The position numbers and the translations under genes are program-made. The notes below the pieces were generated by a model. That model had not been told where the DNA came from. It did not search any database and saw nothing but the letters and a program-made list of their open reading frames with translations. From positions 4,679 to 68,678 of the forward strand of contig CALQYT010000003.1 of NCBI GenBank assembly GCA_943348815.1: a stretch of 64,000 nt of DNA, given 5' to 3'. The DNA comes from Candidatus Nomurabacteria bacterium (GTDB taxonomy: Bacteria > Patescibacteriota > Minisyncoccia > Phycocordibacterales > SBAW01). This document shows positions 12,659-64,000 of the stretch, in pieces; position 1 is the stretch's first letter; each line of letters starts with the position of its first letter.

Positions 12659-13486
12659 TTATTTCGCGCGAGAGATCTGCGACGCGATGAACGGGTCGAT
12701 ACCAGCGTACTTAGAAGGAGTGCTGGTAGCAGCCTGACGAACCGGAGCGTGGGTTACCGTTGCACGAGTCGGCGTCGAGCCAACCATCCAAGCAACGATT
12801 TTGTTTTGAATTTTCTTAACCGCTACAAGATATGCCGCGATCAAGCACCAGAGGACGAGGAAGCCCCAGTAGGCTGCCGTGCCCCACGTACCCAAGTCGA
12901 GACCCGTGTACGGAGCGGCTGCCAAAGAGACATACGGCTGCGCGCGGTAAACCGTCGGCTGTTGGTAGACCGGGTACTGTGCAGGATATTGATACTGTTG
13001 AGTGTAGATCGGCTGTTGCGGAGCATAGACCGGCTGTGATACCGGAACATACACCGGGTAAGAGCCGCCGTTGCTGCCACCGCCGGCGATAGTAACCGTC
13101 GTCGGAGCGTTGAAGATCGAGTGATCGTCGACGTTGCAGGAGTTGACTGCCGTACAGGTACTCACTTGAGTGAGCGTGTTGGTATTGGTGTTGACGTTGG
13201 TATTAGACGGCATGCCGCTAAAACCACCGAAGCCGCTGGTGAAGCCGCCGCCGCCAAAAAAGCCCGGCGAGCTGAAGCCACCCATACCACCGCCAAAACC
13301 GCCCATACCGAGATCGCCGCCGCCGATGTCACCGCCCATGGGGATCCACGAGTCGATAGTTTCACCACCGCCAGGGATAACCGGGAGGTCTGCTGCATAC
13401 GCCGGCAGTGCAAGCACAAAGAGCGCCGCAATAGCAAAAGCTGCCACAAGCGAGATTCCAAAAGTTTTCTTAGTAATTGTATTCAT
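12659..13486 (-). CDS. Secreted low-complexity (Gly-rich, then Tyr/Gln/Pro-rich) protein with a C-proximal TM segment
   Basis: Signal peptide (LVAAFAIAALFVLALPAYA), GGFGGGMGGF-type glycine repeats, a PVYxxPQQPIYTQQYQYP region, and a hydrophobic helix followed by KKIQNK. Confidence 0.55.
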   Translation of the reverse strand: MNTITKKTFGISLVAAFAIAALFVLALPAYAADLPVIPGGGETIDSWIPMGGDIGGGDLGMGGFGGGMGGFSSPGFFGGGGFTSGFGGFSGMPSNTNVNTNTNTLTQVSTCTAVNSCNVDDHSIFNAPTTVTIAGGGSNGGSYPVYVPVSQPVYAPQQPIYTQQYQYPAQYPVYQQPTVYRAQPYVSLAAAPYTGLDLGTWGTAAYWGFLVLWCLIAAYLVAVKKIQNKIVAWMVGSTPTRATVTHAPVRQAATSTPSKYAGIDPFIASQISRAK

Positions 13487-14527: not shown

Positions 14528-15145
14528 TTATGAATTACTCACCGACGACTGATACGCACCGACAAAGTCGGCCGTGACGATGTAGCGTTGAGACTTCGTG
14601 CCAAAGGAGTCGCACGTAACCAAGGTGAGGAACTTGCCCGTTGCAGGGAGTTCTACCACATCTTCGGTGGCATTGGCAAGCCTTACGCTAGTGACGCGGT
14701 AGCGATACTCCAAAGTACCCGAGTAGACGCTCACCACGTCCCCTGTTTTGAGATTTTGGATACCGTTGAAGGCTTTGAAGTTTTGGTTGTGGACAATAGG
14801 CAGGTAAGATGAGTGGCCAAATAACAGCACCGTGCCATCAACGCCCAGCTGCGCCGAGGTCGGATAGCGTACCGCGCCCTTAAGCAAGTCTTCGTCGAGC
14901 GCCTCGACATCGGTCGAGTCGGGGTTGGCGACGCTTACATCCAAACCAACTTTGGCTGCGACAACGCGCACCGGCAACTCGGCTACAAAGTTTTGAGTAT
15001 TAGTAACTTCGACACTCGTGTCGACAGGGGTGGAAGCGTGGTTGGAGATGGGGTCGGGCAGCAAGTCGAGCGCGCCAAATACGGCAAAAGCGAGCACAAA
15101 AAGTGCCACAAAGGTTACTGCAAAGCTCCAATACGTCTTTGCCAT
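14528..15145 (-). CDS. Sortase family transpeptidase
   Basis: N-terminal TM anchor, a conserved His (LLFGHSS) and the TLVTCD...R catalytic Cys/Arg signature. I prefer the MAKTYW start at 15145; the track ORF extends to 15199. Confidence 0.8.
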   Translation of the reverse strand: MAKTYWSFAVTFVALFVLAFAVFGALDLLPDPISNHASTPVDTSVEVTNTQNFVAELPVRVVAAKVGLDVSVANPDSTDVEALDEDLLKGAVRYPTSAQLGVDGTVLLFGHSSYLPIVHNQNFKAFNGIQNLKTGDVVSVYSGTLEYRYRVTSVRLANATEDVVELPATGKFLTLVTCDSFGTKSQRYIVTADFVGAYQSSVSNS

Positions 15146-15211
15146 GGTCGCTCTAGAGTACCACAGATTTAGTAGAGGGTCAACTTGCACACTTGACAAG
15201 TAATTGGTAGT

Positions 15212-23105: not shown

Positions 23106-24350
23106 GTGGCTGTCATGGATATTGGGGCCCTTGGCCTTTATGTATGCCTGTTTGTGGCCCTCTATTTTGAGGTCTTTTTGATGATTTCTTTCCTCGAAAA
23201 GCGCCCCGAAAAAAAGACCAAAATCTTGCCCCGTCACTACCCGACGGTTTCCATGCTCGTACCCTGCTTTAACGAGGGCAAGACGCTCGCCGGCACACTC
23301 GACTCCTTGTTGGCACTTGAGTACCCCAAAGACAAGTTGGACATCGTAGTTATCGACGATGGTTCGCGCGACAATACGGCAACGATCGCACAAGAGTACG
23401 TGGCAAAGCATCCGGAGCGGATTTCTTTCTTCCAAAAACCAAATGGTGGCAAATACACCGCGCTTAACTTGGGGATAGAAAAGAGCCACGGCGAAATTTT
23501 GGGCTGCCTCGATGCCGACTCGTTTGTAGTGGCTGATGCGCTAATAGAAGCGGTCAAAAAGTTTGAGACCGACGCCTCGATTATGGCCATTACTCCGGCA
23601 ATGAAAGTGTACCGTCCGCGTACGATTTTGGAGCTGATACAGCAGGTCGAATATACGTTCGGCATCTTTTATAAAAAAATGTTCGACAACCTTTCGGCCA
23701 TCAACGTATTGCCCGGCCCCTTCTCTATTTACAAACGTGCGGTGTTTGAAAAGATAGGCAACTTCCGCCACGCCCACAATACCGAAGACATGGAGATAGC
23801 CTTCCGCATGCACGCCAACGGGCTGCGTATTGTCAATGCACACACGGCCGAGGTATACACCACCGTGCCTAAGACGATTCGCGCTCTGCTGCGCCAGCGC
23901 ACGCGCTGGTCGCAAGGATTCCTCCAAAACGCCCGCGACTATGCCTACATGTTTTTTAACCGCCGCTACGGAAATTTTGGTCTCTTAATCTTGCCGTTTT
24001 GTCTTGTCTCGATGTGCGCCGGCATATACACCGCGCTCTACGCCGCCTACCGGGTATGCTCGTTTGCAACCGCGCGAGCACTAGAGTTTTTTGCCGCGGG
24101 TGTACCGCCGCACTTCCCCGTGGCACACCTCGACTGGTTTTACGTCAACACCACCATGATGACGTTTGTCGTCGGCTCGGTACTTTCGCTCACCCTCGTT
24201 GCTATCTTGCTTGGCAGCCGGTTGTCTGAAGCGCGACTGACCTTTAAATCGTTTGTCGTCTACTTTGCGTTTTTTGGTCTGCTTGCACCGCTTTGGTTGA
24301 TGCGCGCTACCTGGGGCGCACTCCTTGCACAAGAGAGCCGTTGGCGTTAG
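23106..24350 (+). CDS. Family 2 processive glycosyltransferase (PgaC/IcaA/NodC-like synthase) with C-terminal TM helices
   Basis: DDGSRDNT, LDADSF and QRTRWSQG (QxxRW) motifs, and four or more C-terminal TM segments. Confidence 0.8.
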   Translation: MAVMDIGALGLYVCLFVALYFEVFLMISFLEKRPEKKTKILPRHYPTVSMLVPCFNEGKTLAGTLDSLLALEYPKDKLDIVVIDDGSRDNTATIAQEYVAKHPERISFFQKPNGGKYTALNLGIEKSHGEILGCLDADSFVVADALIEAVKKFETDASIMAITPAMKVYRPRTILELIQQVEYTFGIFYKKMFDNLSAINVLPGPFSIYKRAVFEKIGNFRHAHNTEDMEIAFRMHANGLRIVNAHTAEVYTTVPKTIRALLRQRTRWSQGFLQNARDYAYMFFNRRYGNFGLLILPFCLVSMCAGIYTALYAAYRVCSFATARALEFFAAGVPPHFPVAHLDWFYVNTTMMTFVVGSVLSLTLVAILLGSRLSEARLTFKSFVVYFAFFGLLAPLWLMRATWGALLAQESRWR

Positions 24351-48603: not shown

Positions 48604-49902
48604 TTACTGGAGAGCTTTGAGAAGGTCCTCGGCCTGTGTGTAATCGCTTTTTAATTGTAGCGCTGCTTTTGCAAAATTACGTGCCGCGGAAGTATCCCCT
48701 TGTTGCCGGGCCAACACGCCGCGCAAATAGGAGACTTCCGGACGCAGTGGAGAAAGTTTTTCCGCTTTCGCAAGCGAAGAAGTCGCCTCAAAATCCGCCT
48801 GTGGATAATTGACTGACGCAAGGGCAATAAAAAGAGAGGCGCGGGAAATGTGACTTGCGTACTCACTTGGGTTTACTCCCACCGCACGATCGGCATATTG
48901 AATTGCATTCGTTATTTGGAATTTCAAAGCACTTTCATCACCCTGCGTCTGATAGGTGGTAAAGGCTGCTTGCAGAATAGCGCGCGACGCATCACGGTCG
49001 TACTCGGAGACCTCCCAGAGTTTTGCTGCGGTTACCAGTGTTTGCGAACCTTCGAACGCCTGCGCCTCAAACGCTGCAACACCTTGGGTGTGTGTCGACG
49101 ACGCTTGTGTTTGGCGGACAAAAATCCATCCCCCGCCGGCAAATACCCCCGTGACCATTAACAATCCCAAGGCCAGCCACCACCTGCGCAGCGTGTACGA
49201 ACTCTCTCCGGCGAGGCGTGCGCCTAACCCGAGCGCTGCTGCGCCAACATACCACATCCACGGCGAGACGATGGTAAAGCATAAAAATCCAAACACTACT
49301 ACCGCCATGCCAATACAGAGTATTTCGGCGATAGAAAAAGATCGTGCACGCACCGCGCGATAGCCGAGCATCACCGCGGGAGTAAATGCCAACAATACCG
49401 TAAGTATCCCTAAGACACCGATCGTGGCGGCAAACGTAGTGAGCGTACTATACCCATAAAAAAACGACGCATCCCACCACGGAACACTGTTGACCTCAAT
49501 CGGGCGGTATCGTTGCCACACCATATCAAACAGATGCGGTCCCTCACCAACAAGCGCATGCGGAAGCGACTCAAGATACAGCGGTGCGGTGACCACCATG
49601 GTTGCCGTAAGAGAGGGTCGTATTTCAACTTTGTCTTTAGACACAAACCAACCTAGACCGAGTGTGGCTATAAGGATACTCGCAAGAGCAATCGAACAAA
49701 TTTTTATGTAGGCGCGCGGCACAAGCGACGCAAGTGCAATCACCAATACAAAAATAAAAATTGATGCGACGGTGCCCACCTCCATCTGCGCACCCCATAT
49801 CGACCACGCTTGTGCCGGCGAGAGCGCGGTCGAAATACTTGCGACCACGAGTAGTGGTATCCCCGAGAGCACCAACCAACTGCGTGGAATCTCGACTCTC
49901 AT
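48604..49902 (-). CDS. Polytopic membrane protein with a C-terminal TPR-like region (O-antigen ligase/Wzy_C-like architecture)
   Basis: About 9 predicted TM helices, followed by a ~130-aa soluble helical-repeat C-terminus (AYAFN..., YASHISRASLFIAL, ARNFAKAALQLKSDY). The preferred start is MRVEIPRSW at 49902. Confidence 0.45.
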   Translation of the reverse strand: MRVEIPRSWLVLSGIPLLVVASISTALSPAQAWSIWGAQMEVGTVASIFIFVLVIALASLVPRAYIKICSIALASILIATLGLGWFVSKDKVEIRPSLTATMVVTAPLYLESLPHALVGEGPHLFDMVWQRYRPIEVNSVPWWDASFFYGYSTLTTFAATIGVLGILTVLLAFTPAVMLGYRAVRARSFSIAEILCIGMAVVVFGFLCFTIVSPWMWYVGAAALGLGARLAGESSYTLRRWWLALGLLMVTGVFAGGGWIFVRQTQASSTHTQGVAAFEAQAFEGSQTLVTAAKLWEVSEYDRDASRAILQAAFTTYQTQGDESALKFQITNAIQYADRAVGVNPSEYASHISRASLFIALASVNYPQADFEATSSLAKAEKLSPLRPEVSYLRGVLARQQGDTSAARNFAKAALQLKSDYTQAEDLLKALQ

Positions 49903-49921
49903 TTCATATATACTAACAGGT

Positions 49922-50320
49922 ATGCGCATGGTAGCCGCCGCTTTGTATATTTTGGGGGGCACAATTGTGGGAGTAAGTATCGGATTGTGGTGTGCCAAAC
50001 CGCTCGCCTCCACTTATACTGACGATCAATTTCTACAAAAAAGAATCTCCCTAGACGACGCGCCGAGGTACGTATCTCTCACCGCGATTGTGGGGTCGAT
50101 CGACCGCAACGCACGCACCATTACCACACAGACAAAGGATCCTTATAGTAAAGAGCGTGTAGGGTTGGTAGTTGGGTACGACGCCAACACCACGGTATTC
50201 AATAACGGAGCCCAAAAATCAGCGGAGACGCTGCGCGCTGGCGACACCATCATTCTTACGGTGGCCCGGACCAGCGGCGTCCTGTATGCCTTTAGTATTG
50301 TTAAGCGCTCATATTTATAG
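49922..50320 (+). CDS. Small TM-anchored protein (paralog a)
   Basis: MRMVAAALYILGGTIVGVSIGLW TM, then a ~110-aa domain. The same architecture and motif order (TLTVR...RLVV.Y...GDRV.V) as the next gene. Confidence 0.4.
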   Translation: MRMVAAALYILGGTIVGVSIGLWCAKPLASTYTDDQFLQKRISLDDAPRYVSLTAIVGSIDRNARTITTQTKDPYSKERVGLVVGYDANTTVFNNGAQKSAETLRAGDTIILTVARTSGVLYAFSIVKRSYL

Positions 50321-54335: not shown

Positions 54336-55895
54336 ATGCGTACGATTTTCTATACGGCCACGCTTGGTTTTATTGCTTTGGCAGCCTGGCTTATTTTTAA
54401 CAAACAACACGCAGCTGCTTTTTTTTCAGATGTCTTGGAAGCACAGCGTATCTCGGAGACTGTCTCCGTGGGAGGTAGTCCGTACCAAGTGAAAGACGGC
54501 AATGTGTGGCAAAAAGACCGAGTCATTACCGGAGAAGAAGCACTCCCCATTCTTAAACTTACCTACGCGCTCACGCTCGCAAAGCGACACCCTCTTTTTT
54601 CGCTTGAAGGCAGCGACCCATGGGTGCTTGCCACCGCCACCGAAATGCTTGCCCGCGTCCAAGAAGGATACGTCGAGCTCCAATCGACGGCAGCGGAGCA
54701 GGCCTTAGTCCGCAATCTATATCCTATTAATTTTTTGAGCAACGAAGCTCAGACAGAAATTGCCCGCCGCGCCTTCATAGAGTCCCCATCGGACCGAACA
54801 TACCAACGGTACGACGCATCACTCACCCGGACACTCGTGGCGTATAAAAAAGATTTGTCCGTATTTCGAACTGCCTTTACCAAAGCGGTACCTTCCTTGC
54901 ACCGATCTTACTTCACTCTCGAGGGCATCACCGGAACGAGCAGCGCAATCGCATCACTCGATAGTTTGGCCTTGGGTGCACAAAAAACTGCTGCTCTACT
55001 CGATCGACGGACACAATGTCTACGAGACGCAACGTATCTATGTGACTCTCAAGATATACAACTCCCGCAACTGTATGCCCCCGAATCCGCCGCGGTGTCC
55101 AGCAATGCTCCACCCGCAGTGAGTTCTGTCGTTAATGAATATAAGCTTCAACGAACGAGAACATCTCCTGCTATAATCGTGGCCCTCGCACAGAGCGACT
55201 GCGCGCGCGGCCTTGCCGCGCCATATTATTTTGCAGTATATGAGGAGCGACCTTTGCGGTTGAGCGCCATCGATTTTATTAATGACATTCTTTTTCTTCC
55301 GATACGCGATGGGGGAGAAGATTCACTTTTCCATTATTTTATGAGTCGAGGAGCATCCTACTTTCCTCTCGTGCCTACGGCTCCCTACCAGTGTCCATCA
55401 GCGGGAAGCGACTTTAGTCGTATCTACGCGACCCTACAGGTCGCACGCACTCTAGGAAAACAGCCGGGGGTATTATCGGAAGATGACGTTATATCCTCGT
55501 TCAAAACAGCCTTAGACCACGCGGAGACAAACGGCGGTACGCAAAAAGACACGCTCACGGCACTTACTCTGATGCTCCACGACAAAAGTGCTGGGCTAGA
55601 TTGGTTGGTAGAAGAGATAGCGCGCTTTGGGGAAACCAACTTGCGAATGAAGCAGGGCGGTGTACCTATAGCGACAGCTCCGGACTTTTTGTTTCTTGCT
55701 GAAAGTAGTTTCTTTTCTCTGTTTCAGGGGTATAACCTTTCGGTAGGTCAAGGGGTTGGGGTATCTCCCGCGACCGCCGACCCACTCAGACAATACCAAA
55801 AAAACATACACTCGTGGCTCAAAGCGTCGGACGCCACCCGTGATGAAATGAACGTGAGTTTGCGTTTATTTGTTTCGATACATAAACAAATATAA
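54336..55895 (+). CDS. Membrane-anchored hypothetical protein (519 aa)
   Basis: N-terminal TM (TATLGFIALAAWLIF), then a large soluble domain with several Cys. No recognisable domain. Confidence 0.45.
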   Translation: MRTIFYTATLGFIALAAWLIFNKQHAAAFFSDVLEAQRISETVSVGGSPYQVKDGNVWQKDRVITGEEALPILKLTYALTLAKRHPLFSLEGSDPWVLATATEMLARVQEGYVELQSTAAEQALVRNLYPINFLSNEAQTEIARRAFIESPSDRTYQRYDASLTRTLVAYKKDLSVFRTAFTKAVPSLHRSYFTLEGITGTSSAIASLDSLALGAQKTAALLDRRTQCLRDATYLCDSQDIQLPQLYAPESAAVSSNAPPAVSSVVNEYKLQRTRTSPAIIVALAQSDCARGLAAPYYFAVYEERPLRLSAIDFINDILFLPIRDGGEDSLFHYFMSRGASYFPLVPTAPYQCPSAGSDFSRIYATLQVARTLGKQPGVLSEDDVISSFKTALDHAETNGGTQKDTLTALTLMLHDKSAGLDWLVEEIARFGETNLRMKQGGVPIATAPDFLFLAESSFFSLFQGYNLSVGQGVGVSPATADPLRQYQKNIHSWLKASDATRDEMNVSLRLFVSIHKQI

Positions 55896-56384
55896 TACGA
55901 AAGCGCCAAGCAATGCTCCCAAGAGCCCACTTGCGATTACAAACAGGTACGCAAGCGGAACCGTTTGAGATACTGTAAAAGGAAAAACAGCGGCAGCAAT
56001 CTCGTCTCCGGTAACGGTTCTGAAACTCACCTGAAGCGAATACGATCCTCCTTGTTCAAAAGTATAGAGCAACGTGGTGGGCCCGAGCGGTTGGCGTCGG
56101 ATACCTGTTGCAAGTAGAGTATTTTTGTCCTGCGAAACGACGCGTGTCCATACCTCGTCAAATTTGGCCGGCTTTGTTTTAACGGTATCACTCCAGAGAC
56201 TAAAATCGAACCGCGCGCTTTGTCCCGCTGTAATACTGATTGGATCGTACCCAACATCAATGAAGTAGGTAGTACCTACTGGCTGCTCCCACGAAGCGCC
56301 AGTGCTATGAGCACTCACATACAAAGGAGCGCACAAAAGAGCAGCTGCAACGAGAGAGAAAATTATATTCATAAACTTGACCAT
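55866..56384 (-). CDS. Secreted, C-terminally TM-anchored beta-sandwich-like protein, possibly YcnI/CopC-like
   Basis: Signal peptide ...LYVSA, then a mature N-terminus starting with His (HSTGASWEQ). About 120 aa, then a C-terminal TM LAYLFVIASGLLGALLGAFVLYLF and a basic tail. Confidence 0.4.
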   Translation of the reverse strand: MVKFMNIIFSLVAAALLCAPLYVSAHSTGASWEQPVGTTYFIDVGYDPISITAGQSARFDFSLWSDTVKTKPAKFDEVWTRVVSQDKNTLLATGIRRQPLGPTTLLYTFEQGGSYSLQVSFRTVTGDEIAAAVFPFTVSQTVPLAYLFVIASGLLGALLGAFVLYLFMYRNK

Positions 56385-57547
56385 ACGGCCCAGGCTGCTT
56401 CGCACGACTGGGTAGCCAACGGAGCCAGCACACACGAAGTTTGGATTTTTTCCTTAGACCAAAAGTCGGCCAGTTGTTGAAACGCCGCTTCAAAACAGTG
56501 TGTGTGCCACTCGTCCGGCAGCACCTTGCTCGAGCAAAAGGCGTACGCACCTTTTTGTTTATCGTCCGGTGTCCCTGCTTGTACGAGCCCACTTACGTAG
56601 GAACCTAAGCAATATTCTTGCAAGTCGGGGGCAAGCCCCAAACAGGCCGGGACCGCCTGGGCTGCAGTATTGAGCTGCCGCGCAAACATAGCTGCAAAGG
56701 TAGAGATTGTTCGCTGCAGATACTTGCTCGGTGTGTAGCGATACGCCAAATCAATTGCCTCTTGTAGTGTTTTGTCCGGAGTGAGGTTAAACACCACCGA
56801 AGCTAAGTTGGCGTAACACTCCTCCGGCACGCCGTCTGCGCCCAACTCTCTACAGATTTTAAAAGGGTCTTGTTTATCTATCTTTTTTGCATAGTTTTCA
56901 TCATACGAAATGCCGTTGTATGCGCCGCCAGCACATTTAACGAAATCCTCGTCGGTCTCCGCCGCCTGACGACACAAAGAAAGAGTCTGCTGCACTATTG
57001 CCACTGGGTCGCTCCACTCCCGGACGTCGTGGTGTATCACCGAACCATGTCCTACGCCGTGGAAGCATGCAGCACGGGAATAACTTTTTTGTCCGTTGGA
57101 GTCGTCACCTTGCATGGTGGTGCAAAACTCGCCTATCTCCTTGCCTACCTCTTTGCGGTTGCCTGACTCAAATAAAAATTCAGTGACAAATCCGTGGAAG
57201 AAACCAAAATCACAGACCTGCATATCGGGTGTAAAGGAGAGCCTCTCGCCTGCTTTAAACGATGTATAGGCTCGCTCCCCCACTTGGTGCGCAAAGGCGT
57301 GGCACATCTGTATAAAATCAGGCGACTGTTTCGAAAATATTTGGAGCTGTTGCAGAGCTTGAGGTATCTTATCTTCGACAAGCAGCTCCGAGACGGCAGA
57401 GTTCCAACATTGATACTTTGCGGAGAGACTTCCGCTGCACGTAACACTCCCTTGGGAAGCAAACACCCACCCACCCAACCCAACCCCCACTAACATAACC
57501 GGGACCATCCAAAACACTTTCTTCATCTCTACACTATATCTCAACAT
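56369..57547 (-). CDS. Cys/His-rich membrane-anchored protein, tandem paralog 1
   Basis: N-terminal TM, then CHAFAHQVGERAY, CDFGFFHGFV and CFHGVGHGSV motifs plus about 20 Cys. Confidence 0.6.
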   Translation of the reverse strand: MLRYSVEMKKVFWMVPVMLVGVGLGGWVFASQGSVTCSGSLSAKYQCWNSAVSELLVEDKIPQALQQLQIFSKQSPDFIQMCHAFAHQVGERAYTSFKAGERLSFTPDMQVCDFGFFHGFVTEFLFESGNRKEVGKEIGEFCTTMQGDDSNGQKSYSRAACFHGVGHGSVIHHDVREWSDPVAIVQQTLSLCRQAAETDEDFVKCAGGAYNGISYDENYAKKIDKQDPFKICRELGADGVPEECYANLASVVFNLTPDKTLQEAIDLAYRYTPSKYLQRTISTFAAMFARQLNTAAQAVPACLGLAPDLQEYCLGSYVSGLVQAGTPDDKQKGAYAFCSSKVLPDEWHTHCFEAAFQQLADFWSKEKIQTSCVLAPLATQSCEAAWAVWSSL

Positions 57548-58695
57548 GACGGTTGATACTGGGCCGGAAGCAACCTACAGAAGCCTCCTCGACCCTGCGC
57601 ATCTCCAAACAACTGTCGTGCGTCGCGCGCCAAACCACTGTAACATTCTTGGGCGACGCTTCCCTGCGCTCGGGCACAAAAAGAAACCGCCTCTGCTGCT
57701 GCCGATCGACTCTCCTCGACTATTGCCTGCGCGCTGCCTTCATAACACATCCCTTGCCAAGCCACAGGAAAATTATCACACGCATGCTGTGCCTCTGTTG
57801 CATCACCAAGTGACAGGCGACCGATAATCGCAGAGATGCCCCGCCAGCAGTACTCCTCTTCTTGCGCATTAGGATAGCCCGAGCAGTACGCCTGCACGCC
57901 TATACCACGCAGCAACTCTTCGCGGAAGAGCGGCCAGCTTTCTTCCCTGCACGAGCCGATATACTCAGGATCTTTAAACGTCGCACAAAACTGCCGCACC
58001 GTTGTTTTGGTCGGTTTTGTTTTCATCCGAGCAATCAACTGATAGTCATCGGGCTCAAGCGGTTGATAAATTTGCATAAACACGCCTTGGATACAGACCC
58101 GCTGCGCGTCTTTAGGAAGGGTCCGGCGGCACAAATCGAGCGCCTGCGGCAAATTGGCATCGGTAATAAAGTCGTATAAGTGCCCCATGCCGTGCTCGCA
58201 CACCGCTTGGTCAAAGGGTGTGGGCTGCCACCCTGCGTGCGGTTTGCAGGCGAGAGAGAAATCAGGGATTAGTTTTTCTATGGTGGCCACATCCAGCACT
58301 TCGGAGCGGAAGCGTCCGCCCACCACACCATGCAGGTACCCGTTCGAACAAAGACTGTCGGGCGGATTATACGCTAAATCATCGAGCCATCTTGTAGGAT
58401 CTTCGGCCACTACCCGCTCGCCTATTTTGTGCCCAAGCACATGACAAAATTGATAGCTCGGATCTTGCGCACGCAACGCTCGTACCACGTCAAAAAGCTG
58501 CGCCACCCCGTGCTGTGGGTATAGTTGTGGCACCAACGATTCGTAACACACCTCATGTGTCTTTTCTTTGGCACATTGCGCGGCAAACCCGGCAGCGACC
58601 GCGCGCGCGTCAAACGCGCTTGCCTTGAGAATGGAGAGGGTTGCTCCACCGCATAATATAAGTATCAAGGCGAGGACGGCAATTTTTAGACGCAT
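57541..58695 (-). CDS. Cys/His-rich membrane-anchored protein, tandem paralog 2
   Basis: CHVLGHKIGERVV, CSNGYLHGVV and CEHGMGHLYD. It overlaps its neighbours by 7 and 10 nt. Confidence 0.6.
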   Translation of the reverse strand: MRLKIAVLALILILCGGATLSILKASAFDARAVAAGFAAQCAKEKTHEVCYESLVPQLYPQHGVAQLFDVVRALRAQDPSYQFCHVLGHKIGERVVAEDPTRWLDDLAYNPPDSLCSNGYLHGVVGGRFRSEVLDVATIEKLIPDFSLACKPHAGWQPTPFDQAVCEHGMGHLYDFITDANLPQALDLCRRTLPKDAQRVCIQGVFMQIYQPLEPDDYQLIARMKTKPTKTTVRQFCATFKDPEYIGSCREESWPLFREELLRGIGVQAYCSGYPNAQEEEYCWRGISAIIGRLSLGDATEAQHACDNFPVAWQGMCYEGSAQAIVEESRSAAAEAVSFCARAQGSVAQECYSGLARDARQLFGDAQGRGGFCRLLPAQYQPSC

Positions 58696-59837
58696 AGATT
58701 TTGTTTATACCGATCGGGAACACTGGTGCATACCTCTCGCAAACCCACGCTACCATAAAACTGTTTTGTCGCTGAGAGAAGCGTGCTATAGCAGGCGGGT
58801 AGCAGGCTCGCTTGTATATCGGGCGAGCCGCACAGCAGCAGCATGTCGGTATACTCCGCCCCGGGAGTGCCAAACTCTTGTATACCTACAACTACTCCCG
58901 TGATACAAGCATCGGCATCATGGGTAAGAGCGCTGCAGACACCCGAAACTTCTTTCGGTGAGACGATCATTTTTCTACCGCGCGCAGTACTGAAGTACGT
59001 CCCCGCAACACCGCGCACCGCCAACTCTCGATAGTGCGGGTCGGAAATCTCTTCGGTAAATGCTATCGCCTTGCCGAAGTGGTAGTTGGCCGCAAAAGTG
59101 GCGAGCGTATTCATTTGATCGTAACAGGCATCTTTTTCGGTCGTAGTAAAGTTTGGCGAACCACAGAGACTAAAGGGCTCTCCACCTATAGTGAGCTGGT
59201 ACTTAGCATCGCGATACATAAGCGCAACTGCATTAAACACACCCGAGGCGCAGCGGTAGGCGTGGTCTGTGTTCCCACCTGCGACTTCTTTGCATAAAGC
59301 GAGCCCAGGTGCGGCAATCTTTTGCGCGTCGCCCCACACTCTAGGGTCGGTGCCATCGGTCACTCCATGTCCAACACCGTGATAACAGGCGCCCTCAGCG
59401 TAGCCTGGTGGGTTTGGCACGACCGTACCTGCGTAGCTACAAAATGCGCGCGCCTCGTCAAAATTATTATTTTCATAGATAAGCTCCTCCATAAACCCGT
59501 GATAAAAGCCGTACCCGCAATAGCTTGTTTTATCACTGAGTTCTACCCTGCCGGTGGCATGAAATTCTTTATACGCCTCTTTGCCAAGTTCGTGCGTCTC
59601 GGCGTGACACGTTGCCAAATAACCCGGGTCGGCGTTGTACGCCTCGGCGAGCAGATCGAATGCCGCGCTGAGCCCATGGGTTTTTAGTGTTGCGTCGATG
59701 GCTTTGTTGTAACAATTGTTCTTGTCTTGTACGTCTTGTTGGCATACCAAAAGTGGGTCGGCACGCATGTGCCACGCATACACGGCTCCTCCAACCACCA
59801 AAATACACCCTGCCGTAATAAAAATTATTTTTTGCAC
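58686..59837 (-). CDS. Cys/His-rich membrane-anchored protein, tandem paralog 3
   Basis: CHAETHELGKEAY, CGYGFYHGFM and CYHGVGHGVT. Confidence 0.6.
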   Translation of the reverse strand: MQKIIFITAGCILVVGGAVYAWHMRADPLLVCQQDVQDKNNCYNKAIDATLKTHGLSAAFDLLAEAYNADPGYLATCHAETHELGKEAYKEFHATGRVELSDKTSYCGYGFYHGFMEELIYENNNFDEARAFCSYAGTVVPNPPGYAEGACYHGVGHGVTDGTDPRVWGDAQKIAAPGLALCKEVAGGNTDHAYRCASGVFNAVALMYRDAKYQLTIGGEPFSLCGSPNFTTTEKDACYDQMNTLATFAANYHFGKAIAFTEEISDPHYRELAVRGVAGTYFSTARGRKMIVSPKEVSGVCSALTHDADACITGVVVGIQEFGTPGAEYTDMLLLCGSPDIQASLLPACYSTLLSATKQFYGSVGLREVCTSVPDRYKQNLCV

Positions 59838-61015
59838 GTCGGTTGATAGTAAGCGGGCAAAAGAACGCAGACCTCTGTGCGCCCAGGCAGATATTGCGCG
59901 ATCGCATGGGTGAGCTCATCCCAACAGGCACTTTGTGAGCCAGTCGGCGCGTCGGTACAAAAACGTACCGATGCCTGCGGATTGTTTTCTCCGCCCCAAA
60001 ATACCGATTGCAATGCTTCGCGGACGCACGCCTCTTGGCCCTCGTGAGTTTGTGCGAGCGTGCACCACTGTGCCGCCCGTGTGTATTCCTCGTCACCGAA
60101 CTGGTCGACGTGCCGTATATCCCGTGCGCCTGCGATCGTCACGAACTCCTTACCAAAACCGCCATAGCACGCGCGGCGTAATTCCGGGCGCCCTGCAGGC
60201 ACTGCATCGCAAAATCCAAATGCTTTAGGGAACGTGGCTGGATCGGGCGACGTAAGTTCTGCACCCGCTTGGGCAAAGAGCTCGGGCGTCAAATACTCAA
60301 AACAAAATGTTTTTGCACTATCGGGGATCAAGGACCCCAAACAGAGCGCCGTCGGATCGTGCGGGTTAAGATACTTTTCTCGCGCAACGACCCACGCACC
60401 GTGGTCGTGCCCGCCGCCGCCCATGAGTTCCATCACTGCGCCGCCGACGCACTGTGTATATTGTTCGTCGTTGTATTGTGACGTCCCCATGCGCTTGCAA
60501 AAAGAGACCGTCTTTTGTAAGTCGTATCCGAAGTATGCAAACACTCCGTGTCCTAAACCGTGGTAACACATGGTGTACGCACCCAAACCGCCGGGGGCCT
60601 GGCGACAAGCATCGTCTATTTTTTTGAGCGTTGCGTCGCTCGTACCAAATTCGTTGAGTGCGCCTATCACCACCGCGTGTGAGCAGGCGTTACGGAAATC
60701 TTGCGTGCAGTAGGCTATCCCGCCCATACCCTGCTGTTTGTACAACTCATCCCCCACGGCGTGGCCGAGCAAGTGCAAGTCGGTATTAGACGGGAGGTTG
60801 GCGATTTTCAAAACAGCAAAAGCATATACGGCGCCCTTGTCCTTAGCGAGGGCAACAAAACGATCCGATAACTCTTTAAAGCTTTCAACATTCTTACCTA
60901 TACTCTGTGCCTCGGCATACGGCAGCGGATGCGAGCGCCCCAAAAGCATCAACACACCAACCGTAAGCACCGCGGCGGCTATAAGAATTTTTTTTATCCG
61001 CGGCGTCTCAACCAC
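59825..61015 (-). CDS. Cys/His-rich membrane-anchored protein, tandem paralog 4
   Basis: LHLLGHAVGDELY, CSHAVVIGAL and CYHGLGHGVF. Confidence 0.6.
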   Translation of the reverse strand: MVETPRIKKILIAAAVLTVGVLMLLGRSHPLPYAEAQSIGKNVESFKELSDRFVALAKDKGAVYAFAVLKIANLPSNTDLHLLGHAVGDELYKQQGMGGIAYCTQDFRNACSHAVVIGALNEFGTSDATLKKIDDACRQAPGGLGAYTMCYHGLGHGVFAYFGYDLQKTVSFCKRMGTSQYNDEQYTQCVGGAVMELMGGGGHDHGAWVVAREKYLNPHDPTALCLGSLIPDSAKTFCFEYLTPELFAQAGAELTSPDPATFPKAFGFCDAVPAGRPELRRACYGGFGKEFVTIAGARDIRHVDQFGDEEYTRAAQWCTLAQTHEGQEACVREALQSVFWGGENNPQASVRFCTDAPTGSQSACWDELTHAIAQYLPGRTEVCVLLPAYYQPTCKK

Positions 61016-61749
61016 ACTATCAACAATACCGCAGCTCCAAGAACTACGACAGAGGGGAGCGGATTACCGACCATCGGTCGCGCTCCTCCAAAGAGATATT
61101 CTCCCTTGTTAGCAAGCTGCGTAGGCCCTTTTTCAACCTCAGGGATAACCGGGTTAGCAAGAATGTAGGGATCATGTCGGTTCCCTGTTAGTTGCCAGGA
61201 GACTTTACCTCCAGCCACCCCACCTCCGATCGTAAATTGGTTATTTTTCTCTTCCTTTTTTATATAGAGGTTCGGCATGGTGGCCCCCACTGGTTTTAGC
61301 TGGTAGCGAGCATCTCGGTTAAGTAAATCCCAATAGGCGGGGAGTATAACCACCGCCTCGCCTTTGGTGTCCAGTGTGGCGATCCCGTCGTAGAGATTTT
61401 TTGAATCAGGCGACTCAACAAACGAGTGGTAGAGGAGTTTGTTAGCCGCATCGATGGGGTCGTCGATCACAAACGAGCCGGAGCCTTTAGAGAGGTTACC
61501 AACACTGAGAGCCGATGCACCGCTTTGAGCTACTTGAACATTTTTAGTAAAGGTTTTTTGGTACAGGCCTTGATAATACGATTGGTAGTAAGACTGATAA
61601 TACGATTGGTAGTAAGACTGATAATACGATTCGTAGTAGGACTGATAATACGATTCCCCGTACGTTGCAAGTGCGAAGAAAGGTTGTGTTAAGAAGGTTG
61701 CGCCAAAAAGAAAAGTAACAAGAAGGGCGAAGGTGGTCTTTATTTGCAT
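60994..61749 (-). CDS. Secreted protein with a (SYYQ)n repeat, a conserved family-B domain, and a C-terminal TM plus RRRG tail
   Basis: Signal peptide, ESYYQSYYESYYQSYYQSYYQSYYQSYYQ, then FVIDDPIDAANKLLYHSFVESPDSKNLYDG...NLYIKKEEKNNQF...VSWQLTGNRHDPYILANP. It ends with a hydrophobic helix plus RRRG. Confidence 0.6.
   Translation of the reverse strand: MQIKTTFALLVTFLFGATFLTQPFFALATYGESYYQSYYESYYQSYYQSYYQSYYQSYYQGLYQKTFTKNVQVAQSGASALSVGNLSKGSGSFVIDDPIDAANKLLYHSFVESPDSKNLYDGIATLDTKGEAVVILPAYWDLLNRDARYQLKPVGATMPNLYIKKEEKNNQFTIGGGVAGGKVSWQLTGNRHDPYILANPVIPEVEKGPTQLANKGEYLFGGARPMVGNPLPSVVVLGAAVLLIVWLRRRG
61566..61657 (-). repeat. About 3.75 tandem copies of a 24-nt unit encoding YYQSYYQS
   Basis: TTGGTAGTAAGACTGATAATACGA repeated head-to-tail with one variant copy (TTCGTAGTAGGACTG...). 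Confidence 0.7.
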
Positions 61750-62288
61750 AGTGGTTCAAAAATACACTCACCTTTAGGTACCGACTGCGTTGGGCCCTTT
61801 TCCACCTCGACCGGTTGCGGATGGGCCAGAATGTATGGGTCGTGGCGCGTACCAGTAACTTGCCAGGACACGGTGCCGCCAGGAGCGCCTCCTCCAATAC
61901 TAAACTGGTTATTCTTTTCCTCCTGCTTGATATAGAGGTTGGGCATGGGCTGCTCTAATGCAAAAAATTGATAACGCGCATCTTTGTTTAGAGCATCCCA
62001 ATACGCCGGCAGCACGATAGTCACTTCCCCTTTAGAATCGAGCGTTGCAGTACCGTCATACAAGTTTTCAGGAGCATTAGACTCTACGAAGGAGTGATAC
62101 AAGATTTTGTTAGCGGGATCGAGCGGGTGATCGATAGCAAAAGTGCCGGAGGTTTTGGTGAGGGTACCCACGACCGTGAGATTACCTTTTATCTTAACGC
62201 TCCCCGTCACATTGATCGTCGCCGCAAGACCTACCAACGGCAAACACAACAAAAACAGCACGATGCTTTGGTAGAGTTTATTTCGCAT
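61740..62288 (-). CDS. Secreted family-B paralog 2
   Basis: Signal peptide (LYQSIVLFLLCLPLVGLAA), then FAIDHPLDPANKILYHSFVESNAPENLYDG...NLYIKQEEKNNQF...VSWQVTGTRHDPYILAHP. Confidence 0.6.
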   Translation of the reverse strand: MRNKLYQSIVLFLLCLPLVGLAATINVTGSVKIKGNLTVVGTLTKTSGTFAIDHPLDPANKILYHSFVESNAPENLYDGTATLDSKGEVTIVLPAYWDALNKDARYQFFALEQPMPNLYIKQEEKNNQFSIGGGAPGGTVSWQVTGTRHDPYILAHPQPVEVEKGPTQSVPKGECIFEPLCK

Positions 62289-62895
62289 AGAGATCGGGGA
62301 AGAGATAATCGCCCTGTTGGACAAGGGTATCCGGACCTTTCTTGACCTCAGGCACTATCGGGTTGGCAAGAATAAATGGATCATGCCGAATACCGGTTAC
62401 TTGCCAAGAAATCTTGCCGCCCGGTGCGCCGCCGGCAATTTTGAGTACCGGCGAGCCAAATAGGCCGAAGAACTTTCTACCCACTTCGGAAGTAAGGTGC
62501 AAATTCGGCATCGGTTGTCCTATCGGCGTTGCAAGGTAGCGAAAGTCTTTATTGAGCGCGAGGAAATATTCTGGCAGTTCGATAGTGACTTCTCCGTTGT
62601 TATTGAGTGTTTCGAGACCATCATAAATATTTTTAACCTCTGGCGACTCAACATTGAAGTGATAAAGCAACTTGTTTTTTGGATCAAGTGGATCGTCGAT
62701 GACGAAGCTTTTAGCGCCGGCAGTGACCGACCCCGTGACATTGGTGGAGGTACCCAAAAAGCTTGTACTGTAGCTTAGTGTAATGACGTTGTGACTAAAA
62801 TCGGCCTGTGCATCACAGGGGAGCGATCCGGCGGCAAAAGCACACGCCGTCATTACGAACACCGACCAAAAGATACGCGGGTGAGACATCTTCAT
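62278..62895 (-). CDS. Secreted family-B paralog 3
   Basis: Signal peptide (IFWSVFVMTACAFAAGS), then FVIDDPLDPKNKLLYHFNVESPEVKNIYDG...ISWQVTGIRHDPFILANP. A TATACT -10 lies upstream. Confidence 0.6.
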   Translation of the reverse strand: MKMSHPRIFWSVFVMTACAFAAGSLPCDAQADFSHNVITLSYSTSFLGTSTNVTGSVTAGAKSFVIDDPLDPKNKLLYHFNVESPEVKNIYDGLETLNNNGEVTIELPEYFLALNKDFRYLATPIGQPMPNLHLTSEVGRKFFGLFGSPVLKIAGGAPGGKISWQVTGIRHDPFILANPIVPEVKKGPDTLVQQGDYLFPDLYAK

Positions 62896-62920
62896 CTCTT
62901 CTAGTATACTGTACGACCAT

Positions 62921-63394
62921 ATGGAACAAAAAAGCTTGTGGACTGTTGGGGGGATCCTCCTGTGCGCCGCGGTGGGAGGCATCCTCATTTGGCACCACCT
63001 TTCACAATCTCCTTCCTATACTCCACCCGCACAAGAACCGCCAGGCAAGGGAGTTGTTGGTAACGTAAAGTTAAATAAAGACTCGTACGACACGCTGATC
63101 ACTTACACCGATAGCGGATTTACGCCGAGCGATATCACTATTGCACAAGGCACCCGCGTGCGGTTCTTAAATAACTCTGCGCAAGAAATTTGGCCTGCTT
63201 CGGGTATCCACCCAACCCACACGCTGTATCCCGAAAAAGAAAGTGGCGATTGTTTAGGTAGCTCGTTCGACTCCTGCACCACGCTAGCCAAAGGTGAGTT
63301 TTATGACTTCACCTTCTACTACGTAGGCGCGTGGCCGTACCACGACCACTTGCACGCCTACCAAACCGGCACCATAACGGTTACGGCGAAATAG
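62921..63394 (+). CDS. TM-anchored cupredoxin-like domain protein
   Basis: N-terminal TM, then FTPSDITIAQGTRVRFLNNSAQEIWPASGIHPTH...YDFTFYYVGAWPYHDHLHAYQTGTITV. This is a plastocyanin/azurin-like strand order with a His-rich putative metal site, but no canonical Cys/Met ligands. Confidence 0.4.
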   Translation: MEQKSLWTVGGILLCAAVGGILIWHHLSQSPSYTPPAQEPPGKGVVGNVKLNKDSYDTLITYTDSGFTPSDITIAQGTRVRFLNNSAQEIWPASGIHPTHTLYPEKESGDCLGSSFDSCTTLAKGEFYDFTFYYVGAWPYHDHLHAYQTGTITVTAK

Positions 63395-64000
63395 AAGCTT
63401 TAGCGTTTATTTCAAATCCTGGGTAACTCTTATCCTCTTGGTCGGGACGGAGGTTCGGCCACTTGGCGTTGTCGAAGCGAAGCGCCGAGAGCCGCATCGA
63501 AACCTCGCCCGGCTGGCTCGAAACAATTTTGAGCGTGTTATGCGCTGCGTCTTTTTCGTAATGTACACTGCCGTCGAATGCGGGAGTAAGCGCAACTACC
63601 AAGTCCTTCCAGTTGGTGCCAAAGTCGGTGATTTGGTAAAAGAGCCACACGTCGCTGCCCTTCTCGAGCGAGTTAAAGGAGATCGTGTATTCATACTTGC
63701 CGCTGGCGCCTTTTTGCGAAAGTTCGATGGTCTGCATTACTTCTTCGTGCACGCCAACCGCTGACTGGCCATACGTTGCGTACTTAATGCCATCGATGGT
63801 GTACACCGGGTCGATGGTGGCAACATCGAGTTTGCCCGCTATCTTGATGTCGCCGTAGAAGGTCGAGGTCGCTAAACCAAGCGTCGTCTGGCCGCGGGCG
63901 CCCACAAACAAGCGGTCATTGATTGCAAATTGTTGTGCGGGTGATGAAGTGCCGACGCCCACATAGCCGCTGCTTGCGCCCGTGCCACCAATGACCGAGA
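63381..64000 (-). CDS. Partial CDS (N-terminus lies beyond the window end), hypothetical Gly/Ser-rich then beta-rich protein
   Basis: The reading frame stays open to the window edge (...SVIGGTGASSGYVGVGTSSPAQQFAINDRLFVGARGQ...). The stop is at 63381. Confidence 0.4.
   Translation of the reverse strand, partial: SVIGGTGASSGYVGVGTSSPAQQFAINDRLFVGARGQTTLGLATSTFYGDIKIAGKLDVATIDPVYTIDGIKYATYGQSAVGVHEEVMQTIELSQKGASGKYEYTISFNSLEKGSDVWLFYQITDFGTNWKDLVVALTPAFDGSVHYEKDAAHNTLKIVSSQPGEVSMRLSALRFDNAKWPNLRPDQEDKSYPGFEINAKASISP

Follow-up and report, generated by a model that had tools for sequence, protein, structure and literature searches.

Why would a bacterial chromosome keep three copies of one small, apparently exported protein side by side, with the end of each gene running into the start of the next? 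The question is raised by a trio of minus-strand genes in the window, the stretch of 64,000 nucleotides analysed here, which comes from an uncultured Kaiserbacteria-like bacterium. Gene A (62278..62895, 205 aa) is the first in the operon and corresponds to the third paralog of the initial annotation. The start of gene B (61740..62288, 182 aa) overlaps the stop of gene A by 11 nt (ATGCGAAATAA). The start of gene C (60994..61749, 251 aa) overlaps the stop of gene B by 10 nt (ATGCAAATAA), and its ATG sits within the Leu-Cys codons of gene B's conserved PLC ending. Direct reading of the sequence recovered these overlapping reading frames exactly where the initial annotation had placed them, and the 182-aa start of gene B is backed by an identical database protein (P0001, 182 aa).

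Are the three proteins truly paralogs, and are they secreted? Their pairwise identities to the first paralog are 60% and 47%, and the family HMM matches A, B and C at E = 5e-74, 3e-89 and 4.6e-80, respectively, values that place the paralogy beyond chance. The motif block quoted in the initial annotation is present in the alignment of the trio proteins. The shared domain is likewise real, but it spans about 135-160 aa and not the ~120 aa first proposed. In gene A, a short beta linker joins a signal-peptide-like N-terminus (MKMSHPRIFWSVFVMTACAFAAGSLPCDAQA) to the C-terminal domain of tail-fibre type. In gene B, a similar N-terminus (MRNKLYQSIVLFLLCLPLVGLA) is followed by a linker (TINVTGSVKIKGNLTVVGTLTK) and the domain. 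Gene C is the most elaborate, with a signal-peptide-like N-terminus, a Tyr/Gln/Ser repeat, the domain, a C-terminal hydrophobic helix and RRRG. Secretion of the trio is judged from the N-termini of all three, which resemble Sec signal peptides in their basic n-region, hydrophobic core and ALA/GLA/AQA sites; it is from this resemblance that we infer export, presumably via the Sec pathway.

The Tyr-rich stretch, which the initial annotation had noticed in one paralog, occupies 61558..61662 (-) in gene C (aa 30-64, YGESYYQSYYESYYQ...GLYQ) and consists of (S/E)YYQ-type units. Part of its coding sequence is a 24-nt tandem repeat at 61571-61655 (3.5 copies, 96% matches; TRF, period 24). In most related loci the third gene likewise has repeats of this kind (YYSQ, YYQ, YYYAQG), and at least two YY are found in 72 of 89 tailed homologues. 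The repeat is thus a kept feature of the third gene.

To what family does the domain belong? As the initial annotation had found, it could not be assigned to a known one: neither Pfam nor NCBIfam gave a match, and neither did a search of PDB sequences. Profile searches nonetheless define a large family of 15,652 members at E <= 1e-3 and 6,966 at E <= 1e-30, counted as cluster representatives. Of the 149 top representatives, 143 have no more than 60 aa between the end of the domain and their C-terminus, and 119 have more than 150 aa ahead of the domain. Its N-terminal partners across the family include LamG, Gly-rich domains, DUF7483 and fibre repeats.

The domain is homologous to a C-terminal module of phage tail fibres. 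A tblastn search with a family member detected gp19 of Arthrobacter phage Mufasa8 (39.5% identity, E = 5e-12) and a tail fibre of Prochlorococcus phage P-SSM2 (36% identity, E = 9e-10). The family HMM places the module at residues 184-299 of 352 in Mufasa8 gp19 (48 bits) and at residues 1012-1138 of 1170 in P-SSM2 gp295 (PSSM2_295; 36 bits). In both proteins the module is C-terminal, as in the rest of the family, and both share with the trio the core motif F-x-I-(D/P)-H-P ... H-S-F-x-E-(S/G)-P ... Y-x-G ... L-P-x-Y-F. Three 'minor tail protein' genes follow the tape-measure gene in Mufasa8, and gp19 is the last of them. The PHROGs that hold the phage homologues (17490 and 28536) are annotated 'unknown function'. 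A phage tail-fibre context, raised as a possibility in the initial annotation, therefore exists for homologues of the trio.

Structural comparison points in the same direction. In the AF2 model of gene B, the core is a beta-sandwich with pLDDT above 90, and the N-terminal strands, which are rich in the motifs, are ill-defined in this monomeric model. Foldseek gave 17 viral matches in BFVD at E < 1e-3; the Mufasa8 minor tail protein was the best (2.6e-10), and a P-SSM2 tail fiber-like protein was also among them. The best PDB fold matches are provided by the beta-sandwiches at the C-terminal end of trimeric tailspikes and fibres (7eea, 6cl6, 4mtm); they are weak and not significant (E >= 0.01, range 0.01-0.2; TM about 0.3) and come with no sequence relationship. 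The C-terminal domains of tailspike, pyocin and gp53 align with the trio's beta-sandwich core over 71-81 residues at 2.8-3.8 A. A conserved globular C-terminal domain on otherwise variable fibres is likewise found in the T4 fibritin foldon, the adenovirus fibre knob and the knobs of R-type pyocins and AP22 gp53. The Peptidase_S74 chaperone domain of endosialidases and tail fibres is another conserved C-terminal module of otherwise unrelated trimers. There is no Pfam Peptidase_S74 match in the trio domain, and a purely cis-acting chaperone role is disfavoured because the trio domain stands alone, with nothing upstream to fold.

The trio differs from phage fibres in several respects. It has no fibre shaft, only a signal-peptide-like N-terminus and 20-60 aa before the domain. 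It consists of three conserved paralogs that are cellular and chromosomal and whose non-phage neighbours are conserved, and conservation within this cellular subfamily far exceeds that among the phage versions.

When did the three copies arise? Exactly three tandem copies in the same order are present in about 28 related loci, and an NJ tree of 109 sequences resolves three clades that match gene positions 1, 2 and 3, into which A, B and C fall in turn. An ancient triplication in Parcubacteria thus gave three orthologous classes. A lack of synteny or conservation, which the initial annotation had offered as the sign of a spurious family, was not what these loci displayed, and the family is genuine. 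Class A is marked by RYLATP, an extra loop (RKFFGLFGSPVLK) and the ending DYLFPDLYAK, class B by RYQFF and a C-terminal Cys pair (KGECIFEPLCK), and class C by RYQLKP in the domain; the tail and the Tyr-rich arm are restricted to class C. Overlaps of 10, 11 or 4 nt occur at 42 of about 75 trio junctions. Some genomes have a second, diverged trio that again comprises all three genes, which fits duplication of the whole trio as a unit.

Taken together, we tentatively favour, at somewhat less than an even chance, a trimeric and probably heterotrimeric knob of the tail-fibre type that is held at the membrane by subunit C. We infer the following course of export, trimer formation, heteromeric assembly, membrane anchoring and biological role. 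Each trio protein consists of a signal-peptide-like N-terminus and essentially one conserved beta-sandwich module. Thousands of bacterial fibre-like proteins, as well as some phage tail fibres, end in the same module, which by analogy with other trimeric fibres would act as a C-terminal knob for trimerisation and registration. With their fixed order and overlapping stop and start codons, A, B and C should be made together in equal amounts. They would come together as a single knob on the outer side of the membrane, most likely an A:B:C heterotrimer; mixed assembly is expected to be feasible, since 67 alignment columns are identical across the three classes. Subunit C would supply a flexible Tyr-rich arm and, with its C-terminal helix, keep the complex attached to the membrane. 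The knob would belong to a conserved cell-surface locus, with a probable role in surface architecture or attachment. In the globular head of complement C1q, the A, B and C chains, the products of three paralogous genes in tandem, form a heterotrimer. The two systems are alike only in the logic of their arrangement, three tandem beta-sandwich paralogs in distinct orthologous classes; the fold family and organisms differ, the trio heterotrimer is hypothetical, and the likeness is an analogy.

Could each paralog instead form its own homotrimer? Three separate homotrimers are possible, in which case each protein would have a role of its own and the tandem layout would reflect shared regulation only. 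The domain presumably can homo-oligomerise, because the three copies are homogenised at one locus (L029) and most non-CPR relatives are single genes. Class-specific columns are few (at the 70% level, three two-state and no three-state columns), too few to give a clear sign of an asymmetric interface. In some lineages A or B has a large N-terminal domain of its own (Gly-rich, LamG or Ig-like), as independent adhesins would. However, the anchor is in C, and A and B have none of their own. Moreover, three classes with a fixed order and coupled translation have been kept across a wide phylogenetic span, and the second type of trio also comes as a full set. Overall, we regard separate homotrimers as rather unlikely.

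The locus around the trio is conserved. Its other members are a giant fibre protein anchored in the membrane, a cupredoxin-like protein rich in His and, after the trio, alpha-solenoid paralogs rich in Cys and His. The 3' end of the giant fibre gene lies at 63381..64000 (-), and the gene runs past the window edge with no in-frame stop to the window end. The protein has at least 501 aa on contig L084, and full-length relatives have 1000-1957 aa. In these relatives, an N-terminal HTH-like segment, a TM helix and S/T/G/A-rich repeats are followed by GNVGIGTTSP-type repeats and a conserved C-terminal domain (GDIKIxGKLDVxTIDPVYTIDGxKYATYG...).

Might the trio serve this fibre? Fibre genes followed by small genes are a classical phage layout, as in the fibre modules of T4, T2, Mu and P2. 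Tail-fibre assembly proteins are encoded just downstream of the fibre genes in phages, and gp38 is the tip adaptor on T2-type long tail fibres. By the same logic, the trio proteins could attach to the giant fibre at its distal C-terminal domain and act there as tip adaptors or adhesins, or as helpers of folding in trans. The giant fibre gene is directly upstream of the trio in 12 of the 22 loci where this is visible, but no such gene is seen in the other 10, and the second type of trio comes without these partners. The giant-fibre C-terminal domain shares a ...VS.RL...R.D motif with the trio domain; the similarity is faint and not significant (hhalign E = 0.002, probability 13%), and a relationship between the two is only suggestive. 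Nothing similar was found among the known Tfa or gp38 families. An accessory role to the fibre is quite unlikely on this evidence.

The conservation of the domain raises a further question. Kaiserbacteria proteins have 55-60% identity to proteins of Acidobacteriota, Chloroflexota or Verrucomicrobiota, which is unusually high, and about 30 alignment columns are invariant, many of them polar or aromatic (D, H, S, E, N, Y, R, W). Such residues would equally suit a ligand-, metal- or substrate-binding site, and the alternation of H and D in the IDHP/IDDP motif would suit a metal ligand. The trio proteins would then be lectins or enzymes that act, through a glycan, metal or catalytic site, on a widely shared surface polymer. 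This seems improbable, as searches found no resemblance to any enzyme or lectin family and the folds that match are those of structural knobs on fibres and tailspikes. Receptor-binding tips, moreover, are normally the most variable part of fibres and not the most conserved.

How, then, would the proposed knob be held at the membrane? Gene C ends in NPLPSVVVLGAAVLLIVWLRRRG, with a hydrophobic helix at 61009..61053 (-) (SVVVLGAAVLLIVWL, aa 233-247) followed directly by RRRG and the stop (60994-61008, -), and no alternative reading frame would give it another tail. The initial annotation had read this tail as a sortase or exosortase signal, which would make gene C a substrate that is cleaved and attached covalently to the cell wall. 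The tripartite look of the tail (a short Pro-rich segment, the hydrophobic helix and RRRG) is in keeping with this, as LPXTG and PEP-CTERM signals also have a hydrophobic helix and then basic residues at the extreme C-terminus. The window does encode a sortase, as had been reported (14528-15199; Pfam Sortase E = 1.2e-18), but it is 46 kb away from the trio, and none of the proteins in the window was recognised as an exosortase-like polytopic protein. The tail has no LPXTG-like or PEP motif and no match to NCBIfam sorting-signal models even at E <= 10. Nor is it conserved. Its maximal 15-residue hydropathy is 2.81, as against <=1.66 in 40 syntenic orthologues; only about 6 of 89 tailed database homologues have a TM-plus-Arg tail, with no shared motif ahead of it, and the tails of most gene C orthologues are amphipathic and non-TM. 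The sorting-signal reading is largely refuted by the missing motif, HMM match and conservation, and we consider it very improbable. A plain stop-transfer anchor is the better fit; judged from its sequence, the tail is most likely a membrane anchor of this kind with a cytoplasmic basic end. The helix of subunit C would thus be truly transmembrane with RRRG in this genome and amphipathic in most relatives.

For all its homology to phage tail-fibre C-terminal modules, the trio has practically no chance of being a prophage remnant without a cellular role, a reading refuted for practical purposes by the signal-peptide-like N-terminus of every trio protein, a gene order kept with non-phage partners in dozens of Parcubacteria genomes, the absence of phage genes nearby, the unremarkable base composition of the trio part of the window, the housekeeping genes around non-CPR relatives, and the scarcity of viral relatives (no near relatives in 50,697 phage genomes and only three loci in IMG/VR).

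The non-phage partners themselves are distinctive. Downstream of the trio are four tandem paralogs (56369..61015, -; 59825-61015, 58686-59837, 57541-58695 and 56369-57547), the first of which shares 22 nt with the end of gene C. Each is a protein of 383-396 aa in which an N-terminal TM helix precedes an all-alpha solenoid rich in Cys and His. The family has no Pfam match, and the AF2 model (pLDDT 93.6) is all-alpha and matches only generic ARM/HEAT/TPR folds. The family is confined to Parcubacteria, has HMM matches in nearly all CPR loci and follows 22 of the 26 type-1 trios with room downstream. The gene for the cupredoxin-like protein (62921..63394, +; 157 aa, N-terminal TM helix) separates gene A from the giant fibre gene and is read from the other strand. 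The Pfam Cupredoxin_1 match of its product (E = 2.7e-4) falls below the curated cutoff. His97, His100, His141, Asp142 and His143 are conserved in this protein, and there is no conserved Cys. Its homologues (E = 1e-57 to 1e-68) adjoin the trio elsewhere, a cupredoxin being next to the trio in 8 of 29 loci. In other proteins, the cupredoxin domain is fused to versions of the Cys-rich family of about 450-520 aa.

Three minus-strand genes, here called A, B and C in operon order, encode paralogs of 205 aa (A, 62278-62895), 182 aa (B, 61740-62288) and 251 aa (C, 60994-61749). The start of B is backed by an identical database protein (P0001). Read directly from the sequence, the stop of A and the ATG of B overlap by 11 nt, the stop of B and the ATG of C overlap by 10 nt, and the gene after C begins 22 nt ahead of the C stop. 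The three ORFs were described correctly in the initial annotation, and the motif block that it reported is seen in an alignment of ~160 residues with 47-60% identity. The paralogy is upheld by a family HMM, which matches A, B and C with E = 5e-74 to 3e-89. Their secretion, also claimed, is probable: the N-termini can be read as Sec signal peptides because each combines one or two basic residues with a hydrophobic segment and a small-x-small site (AQA, GLA and ALA). The Tyr-rich repeat noted in C was found as an (S/E)YYQ run at aa 30-64, part of which is encoded by a 24-nt tandem repeat, and the protein ends in SVVVLGAAVLLIVWLRRRG.

The shared domain could not initially be assigned to a known family, and Pfam and NCBIfam scans of A, B and C likewise gave no match. 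Single-sequence and profile searches of PDB sequences found no relative (nothing below E = 0.07 in the profile search), and no description of the family was found in the searchable literature, with the motif string included among the queries. The family is nevertheless large. A word-indexed search returned more than 800 close relatives of ~180 aa each, and those with an organism name were all from Patescibacteria (Kaiserbacteria, Adlerbacteria, Paceibacterota), also known as the CPR. A profile search of 1.84 billion representatives returned 15,652 proteins at E <= 1e-3, with 6,966 at E <= 1e-30. The domain is characteristically C-terminal: of 149 top representatives, 143 have its end no more than 60 residues from the C-terminus, and 119 have more than 150 residues ahead of it. 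Among the N-terminal partners are LamG, Gly-rich domains, DUF7483 and lengthy segments with GNVGIGTTSP-type fibre repeats. With each GTDB species represented by a single genome, 581 relatives were found. The Patescibacteria members are short; in Acidobacteriota, Chloroflexota, Verrucomicrobiota, Planctomycetota, Ignavibacteria, Bacteroidia, Xanthomonadales and Hyphomicrobiales the domain forms the C-terminal end of 300-1100-aa proteins with 55-60% identity to the window protein. One JGI homologue (P0082) is labelled a trimeric autotransporter adhesin; this identity is not supported for the window proteins, since Pfam found no YadA-type head, stalk or membrane-anchor domain in A, B or C. At 50% identity the family comprises over 15,000 clusters, spread over at least ten phyla as well as phages, and it has neither a Pfam or NCBIfam model nor a solved structure. 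Defining it would give an annotation to thousands of fibre-like surface proteins now called 'hypothetical'.

The structure of the domain connects it to phage tail fibres. In an AF2 model of B, the beta-sandwich core is confident (residues ~75-150, pLDDT > 90) and the motif-rich strands preceding it (residues ~45-72) are ill-defined. The best PDB fold matches (7eea, 9k4a, 6cl6/6ct8 and 4mtm) are weak (E = 0.01-0.2) and are C-terminal beta-sandwich domains of trimeric tailspikes and fibres, including the gp53-like and pyocin-fibre knobs (4mtm, 6cl6, 6ct8). Among predicted viral structures there were 17 matches at E < 1e-3, led by an Arthrobacter phage Mufasa8 minor tail protein (2.6e-10) and including a P-SSM2 tail fiber-like protein. 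Paralog B alone had no match in 50,697 phage genomes by single-sequence tblastn, and the phage link emerged only from searches with the family profile, with the structure or with a family member from outside the CPR. That member's C-terminal domain is 39.5% identical to Mufasa8 gp19 (E = 5e-12) and 36% identical to P-SSM2 PSSM2_295 (9e-10), and it also matches several fibre-like proteins from cyanophages and Flavobacterium phages. In gp19 (352 aa) the family HMM covers residues 184-299, and in PSSM2_295 (1170 aa) residues 1012-1138. In Mufasa8, gp19 is the last of three 'minor tail protein' genes after the tape-measure gene. No Pfam model covers the module region of the phage homologues at E <= 0.01; the PHROGs that do cover it (17490 and 28536) have no assigned function, and window paralogs match PHROG 17490 weakly (E = 2.8e-4 and 5.4e-3).

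The earlier suggestion to look for homologs in phage tail-fibre contexts was thus well placed, as Mufasa8 gp19 and PSSM2_295 are related to the family by both sequence and fold. This likeness, together with the lack of phage neighbours, marks the domain as a cellular relative of a so far uncharacterised phage tail-fibre C-terminal module and not as a prophage remnant. When 107 genes next to non-CPR homologues were scanned with Pfam, they proved to be unrelated housekeeping genes with no conserved context and no phage genes, and a prophage context for those homologues was rejected. The conserved cellular subfamily is rare in IMG/VR, where a scan with the conserved peptides of the family found 3 loci, in one of which the family gene adjoins a tailspike-like gene. 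An intramolecular chaperone of the Peptidase_S74 type is not supported, as PF13884 had no match in window proteins at E <= 1 or in phage homologues at E <= 0.01. The domain belongs to a known kind of protein, the tail-fibre end-modules. Whereas the phage module stands at the C-terminal end of a long protein, in A, B and C only 20-60 residues separate the signal-peptide-like N-terminus from the domain. They lack a fibre shaft and are therefore a minimal variant. What is new is this shaft-less, triplicated, cell-encoded form and its conserved locus in Parcubacteria.

The trio is an ancient, conserved unit, as judged from the homologous sequences. Exactly three tandem family genes were found in 28 of ~40 Patescibacteria loci, so the trio is not the spurious family that a lack of synteny would have suggested. 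In a neighbour-joining tree of 109 domains, three clades correspond to gene positions 1, 2 and 3, with few exceptions (the homogenised locus L029 and a second trio type). The classes differ in the motif after RY. Class A has LATP, an extra loop and the ending EYxxPE(L/F)Y; class B has QFF and ends in KGEC(I/L)xEPLC(K/E). Class C has QLKP, and its signal peptide is followed by a Tyr-rich repeat of variable length (YYSQ, YYQ, YYYAQG), the protein closing with a C-terminal tail of 20-45 aa. The junction overlaps are also conserved (of ~75, 23 are of 10 nt, 13 of 11 nt and 6 of 4 nt), and the ATG of C sits within the Leu-Cys codons of the PLC ending of B. Scanning the operon for promoters and terminators yielded no informative signal. 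In one related genome (L003 8548-10577, and L004), a YcaO and a nitroreductase-family protein are encoded on the opposite strand between B and C. Some genomes carry a second, diverged trio, which is consistent with duplication of the trio as a unit. In this second type (L020, L037, L073/L048), the first gene ends in MY(V/I)HPELYA..., and the third has a Gly-rich N-terminal domain in place of Tyr repeats and a different tail with the motif GNAPxCST..C.W..F. Two Acidobacteriota loci (L053 3886-11142 and L056 4228-11512) each encode three tandem paralogs of 700-885 aa that end in the domain; such triplets may therefore extend beyond Patescibacteria.

The C-terminal tail of C was initially read as a sortase or exosortase sorting signal. 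It consists of SVVVLGAAVLLIVWL followed by RRRG, with a hydropathy of 2.81. A hydrophobic segment and a short basic tail are indeed present, and they are equally a feature of any tail or stop-transfer anchor. A sortase is encoded at 14528-15199, as had been reported. The last 45 aa of C contain nothing that fits the LPXTG-like pattern [LIVFMP]P.[TSAG][GANSD]; the residues at the expected position are GNPLPSVVV. Neither a PEP motif nor a PEP-CTERM model was found in an NCBIfam scan of the tail, where the only match at E <= 10 was Heimdall-CTERM (E = 0.1, with 13 bits where the cutoff is 24). The only two polytopic membrane proteins of the window are encoded at 48604-50013 and 23106-24350, and the former has TPR and weak DUF4131 matches and no exosortase match. 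The tail is also not conserved. In 40 syntenic loci the orthologue tails are amphipathic and aromatic (ending ...LFGR, ...LLAR, ...LFH), with a maximal hydropathy of 1.66 or less compared with 2.81 in the window. The median among 89 tailed database homologues is 0.89, and only ~6 of the 89 have a TM helix with an Arg cluster, with no common motif ahead of the helix. With no pentapeptide, curated model match or orthologue conservation, the tail is most unlikely to mark an LPXTG-type sortase substrate, and the sorting-signal reading is not supported. A C-terminal hydrophobic helix with basic residues does not by itself make a sorting signal. A frameshift origin of the TM tail was also rejected, as no other frame encodes an orthologue-like tail. 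Tails in this family vary between amphipathic and fully hydrophobic, which suggests that their job is to associate with the membrane. After Sec export, the tail of the window C would act as a stop-transfer anchor, with RRRG presumably on the cytoplasmic side.

Only one other ORF in the window has a C-terminal TM helix and a basic end. It is the last gene of the operon-like run (55866-56435, minus strand, 189 aa), encodes N- and C-terminal TM helices (...LGALLGAFVLYLFMYRNK), also lacks a motif, and has a homologue in one other locus only (L034). Near the sortase gene, a 275-aa protein (12659-13486, minus strand) begins with a hydrophobic segment, continues with a region rich in Gly and in Q/Y/P, and then has AAPYTGLDLG, a TM helix and a ~50-aa tail. 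By its PYTG and TM helix it might be a candidate non-canonical sortase substrate; the long post-helix tail is atypical.

Folding of trimeric fibres generally proceeds from a globular registration domain at the C-terminus; the foldon of fibritin and the knobs of adenovirus and of tail fibres are examples. The domain may serve as such a registration knob, because it is C-terminal, is highly conserved beside variable N-terminal parts, and has motif strands that are ill-defined in the monomer model. A ligand- or metal-binding module is a less favoured account of the domain. In Parcubacteria the module has been reduced to three minimal, co-translated paralogs, with an arm and an anchor in C alone. 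We therefore propose that A, B and C assemble into a knob held at the membrane, the most likely form being an A:B:C heterotrimer. Where a lineage has its own N-terminal domain on A or B (LamG, Gly-rich, Ig-like), that domain would project from the knob as an arm. The main alternative is that A, B and C form three separate homotrimers. A heterotrimer, if true, would be an unusual mode of assembly for a fold that otherwise serves phages as a homotrimer, and an obligate A:B:C knob would be a rare heteromeric 'tail-fibre tip'.

A further alternative to the self-standing heterotrimer is that the trio is the tip or an assembly accessory of a giant fibre. The 3' end of a giant fibre gene lies at 63381-64000 on the minus strand (listed ORF 63381-63962), and the gene runs off the window. 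The gene was also seen at L084 2-1507 and L029 125-5998. Full-length relatives have 1000-1957 aa and run from an HTH-like N-terminal segment, presumably cytoplasmic, through a TM helix and extended repeats (S/T/G/A-rich and GNVGIGTTSP) to a conserved C-terminal domain, whose motif is GKLDVxTIDPVYTIDGxKYATYG. In 12 of 22 loci this gene immediately precedes the trio, and its C-terminal domain has a faint likeness to the trio family (hhalign probability 13%).

Downstream of C, four tandem Cys/His-rich paralogs (56369-61015, minus strand, 383-396 aa each) have an N-terminal TM helix and an all-alpha solenoid. The family is found only in Parcubacteria, has no Pfam match and follows 22 of 26 Tyr-type trios; the second trio type is not followed by it. 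Its invariant residues include H81, H85, C137, C150, H152 and H156, within a CYHGxGHG motif. AF2 predicts an all-alpha solenoid with very high confidence (pLDDT 93.6), and its fold matches are generic ARM/HEAT/TPR alpha-solenoids only. On the strand opposite to the trio, a 157-aa cupredoxin-like protein is encoded at 62921-63394 (plus strand). Its gene adjoins the trio in 8 of 29 loci, and its domain is fused to ~450-520-aa versions of the Cys-rich family. It conserves His97, His100, His141, Asp142 and His143 (WPAS..HPTH ... HDH) and no Cys, and therefore has no classical type-1 copper site. This neighbour and the Tyr-rich repeat of C raise the idea of copper-dependent Tyr chemistry. To our knowledge, the surface-building and host-contact molecules of Patescibacteria are largely uncharacterised outside type IV pili. 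The giant fibre, three knob proteins, copper protein and Cys/His-rich solenoids constitute a testable candidate surface or attachment structure in Parcubacteria. The most far-reaching reading would be that Parcubacteria domesticated a phage end-module as an obligate A:B:C surface knob that caps or decorates the giant membrane-anchored fibre, with the Tyr-rich arm oxidatively cross-linked (e.g., as dityrosine) by the copper protein and the Cys/His-rich alpha-solenoids of the locus, the whole being an attachment organelle of presumed episymbionts. Taken in its entirety, we consider this proposal improbable.

Elsewhere in the window, a 1883-aa protein (41050-46701, minus strand) combines SPRY and a Gly-rich domain with DUF7483, which matches in two stretches (E = 1.2e-81). 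Because the distant homologue P0160 joins DUF7483 to the tail-fibre-type C-terminal domain, this protein may be a further surface-fibre component. Towards the C-terminus of a 1382-aa protein (8122-12270, minus strand) lies a heptosyltransferase-like domain of glycosyltransferase family 9, which is unusual for a presumed monoderm member of the CPR.
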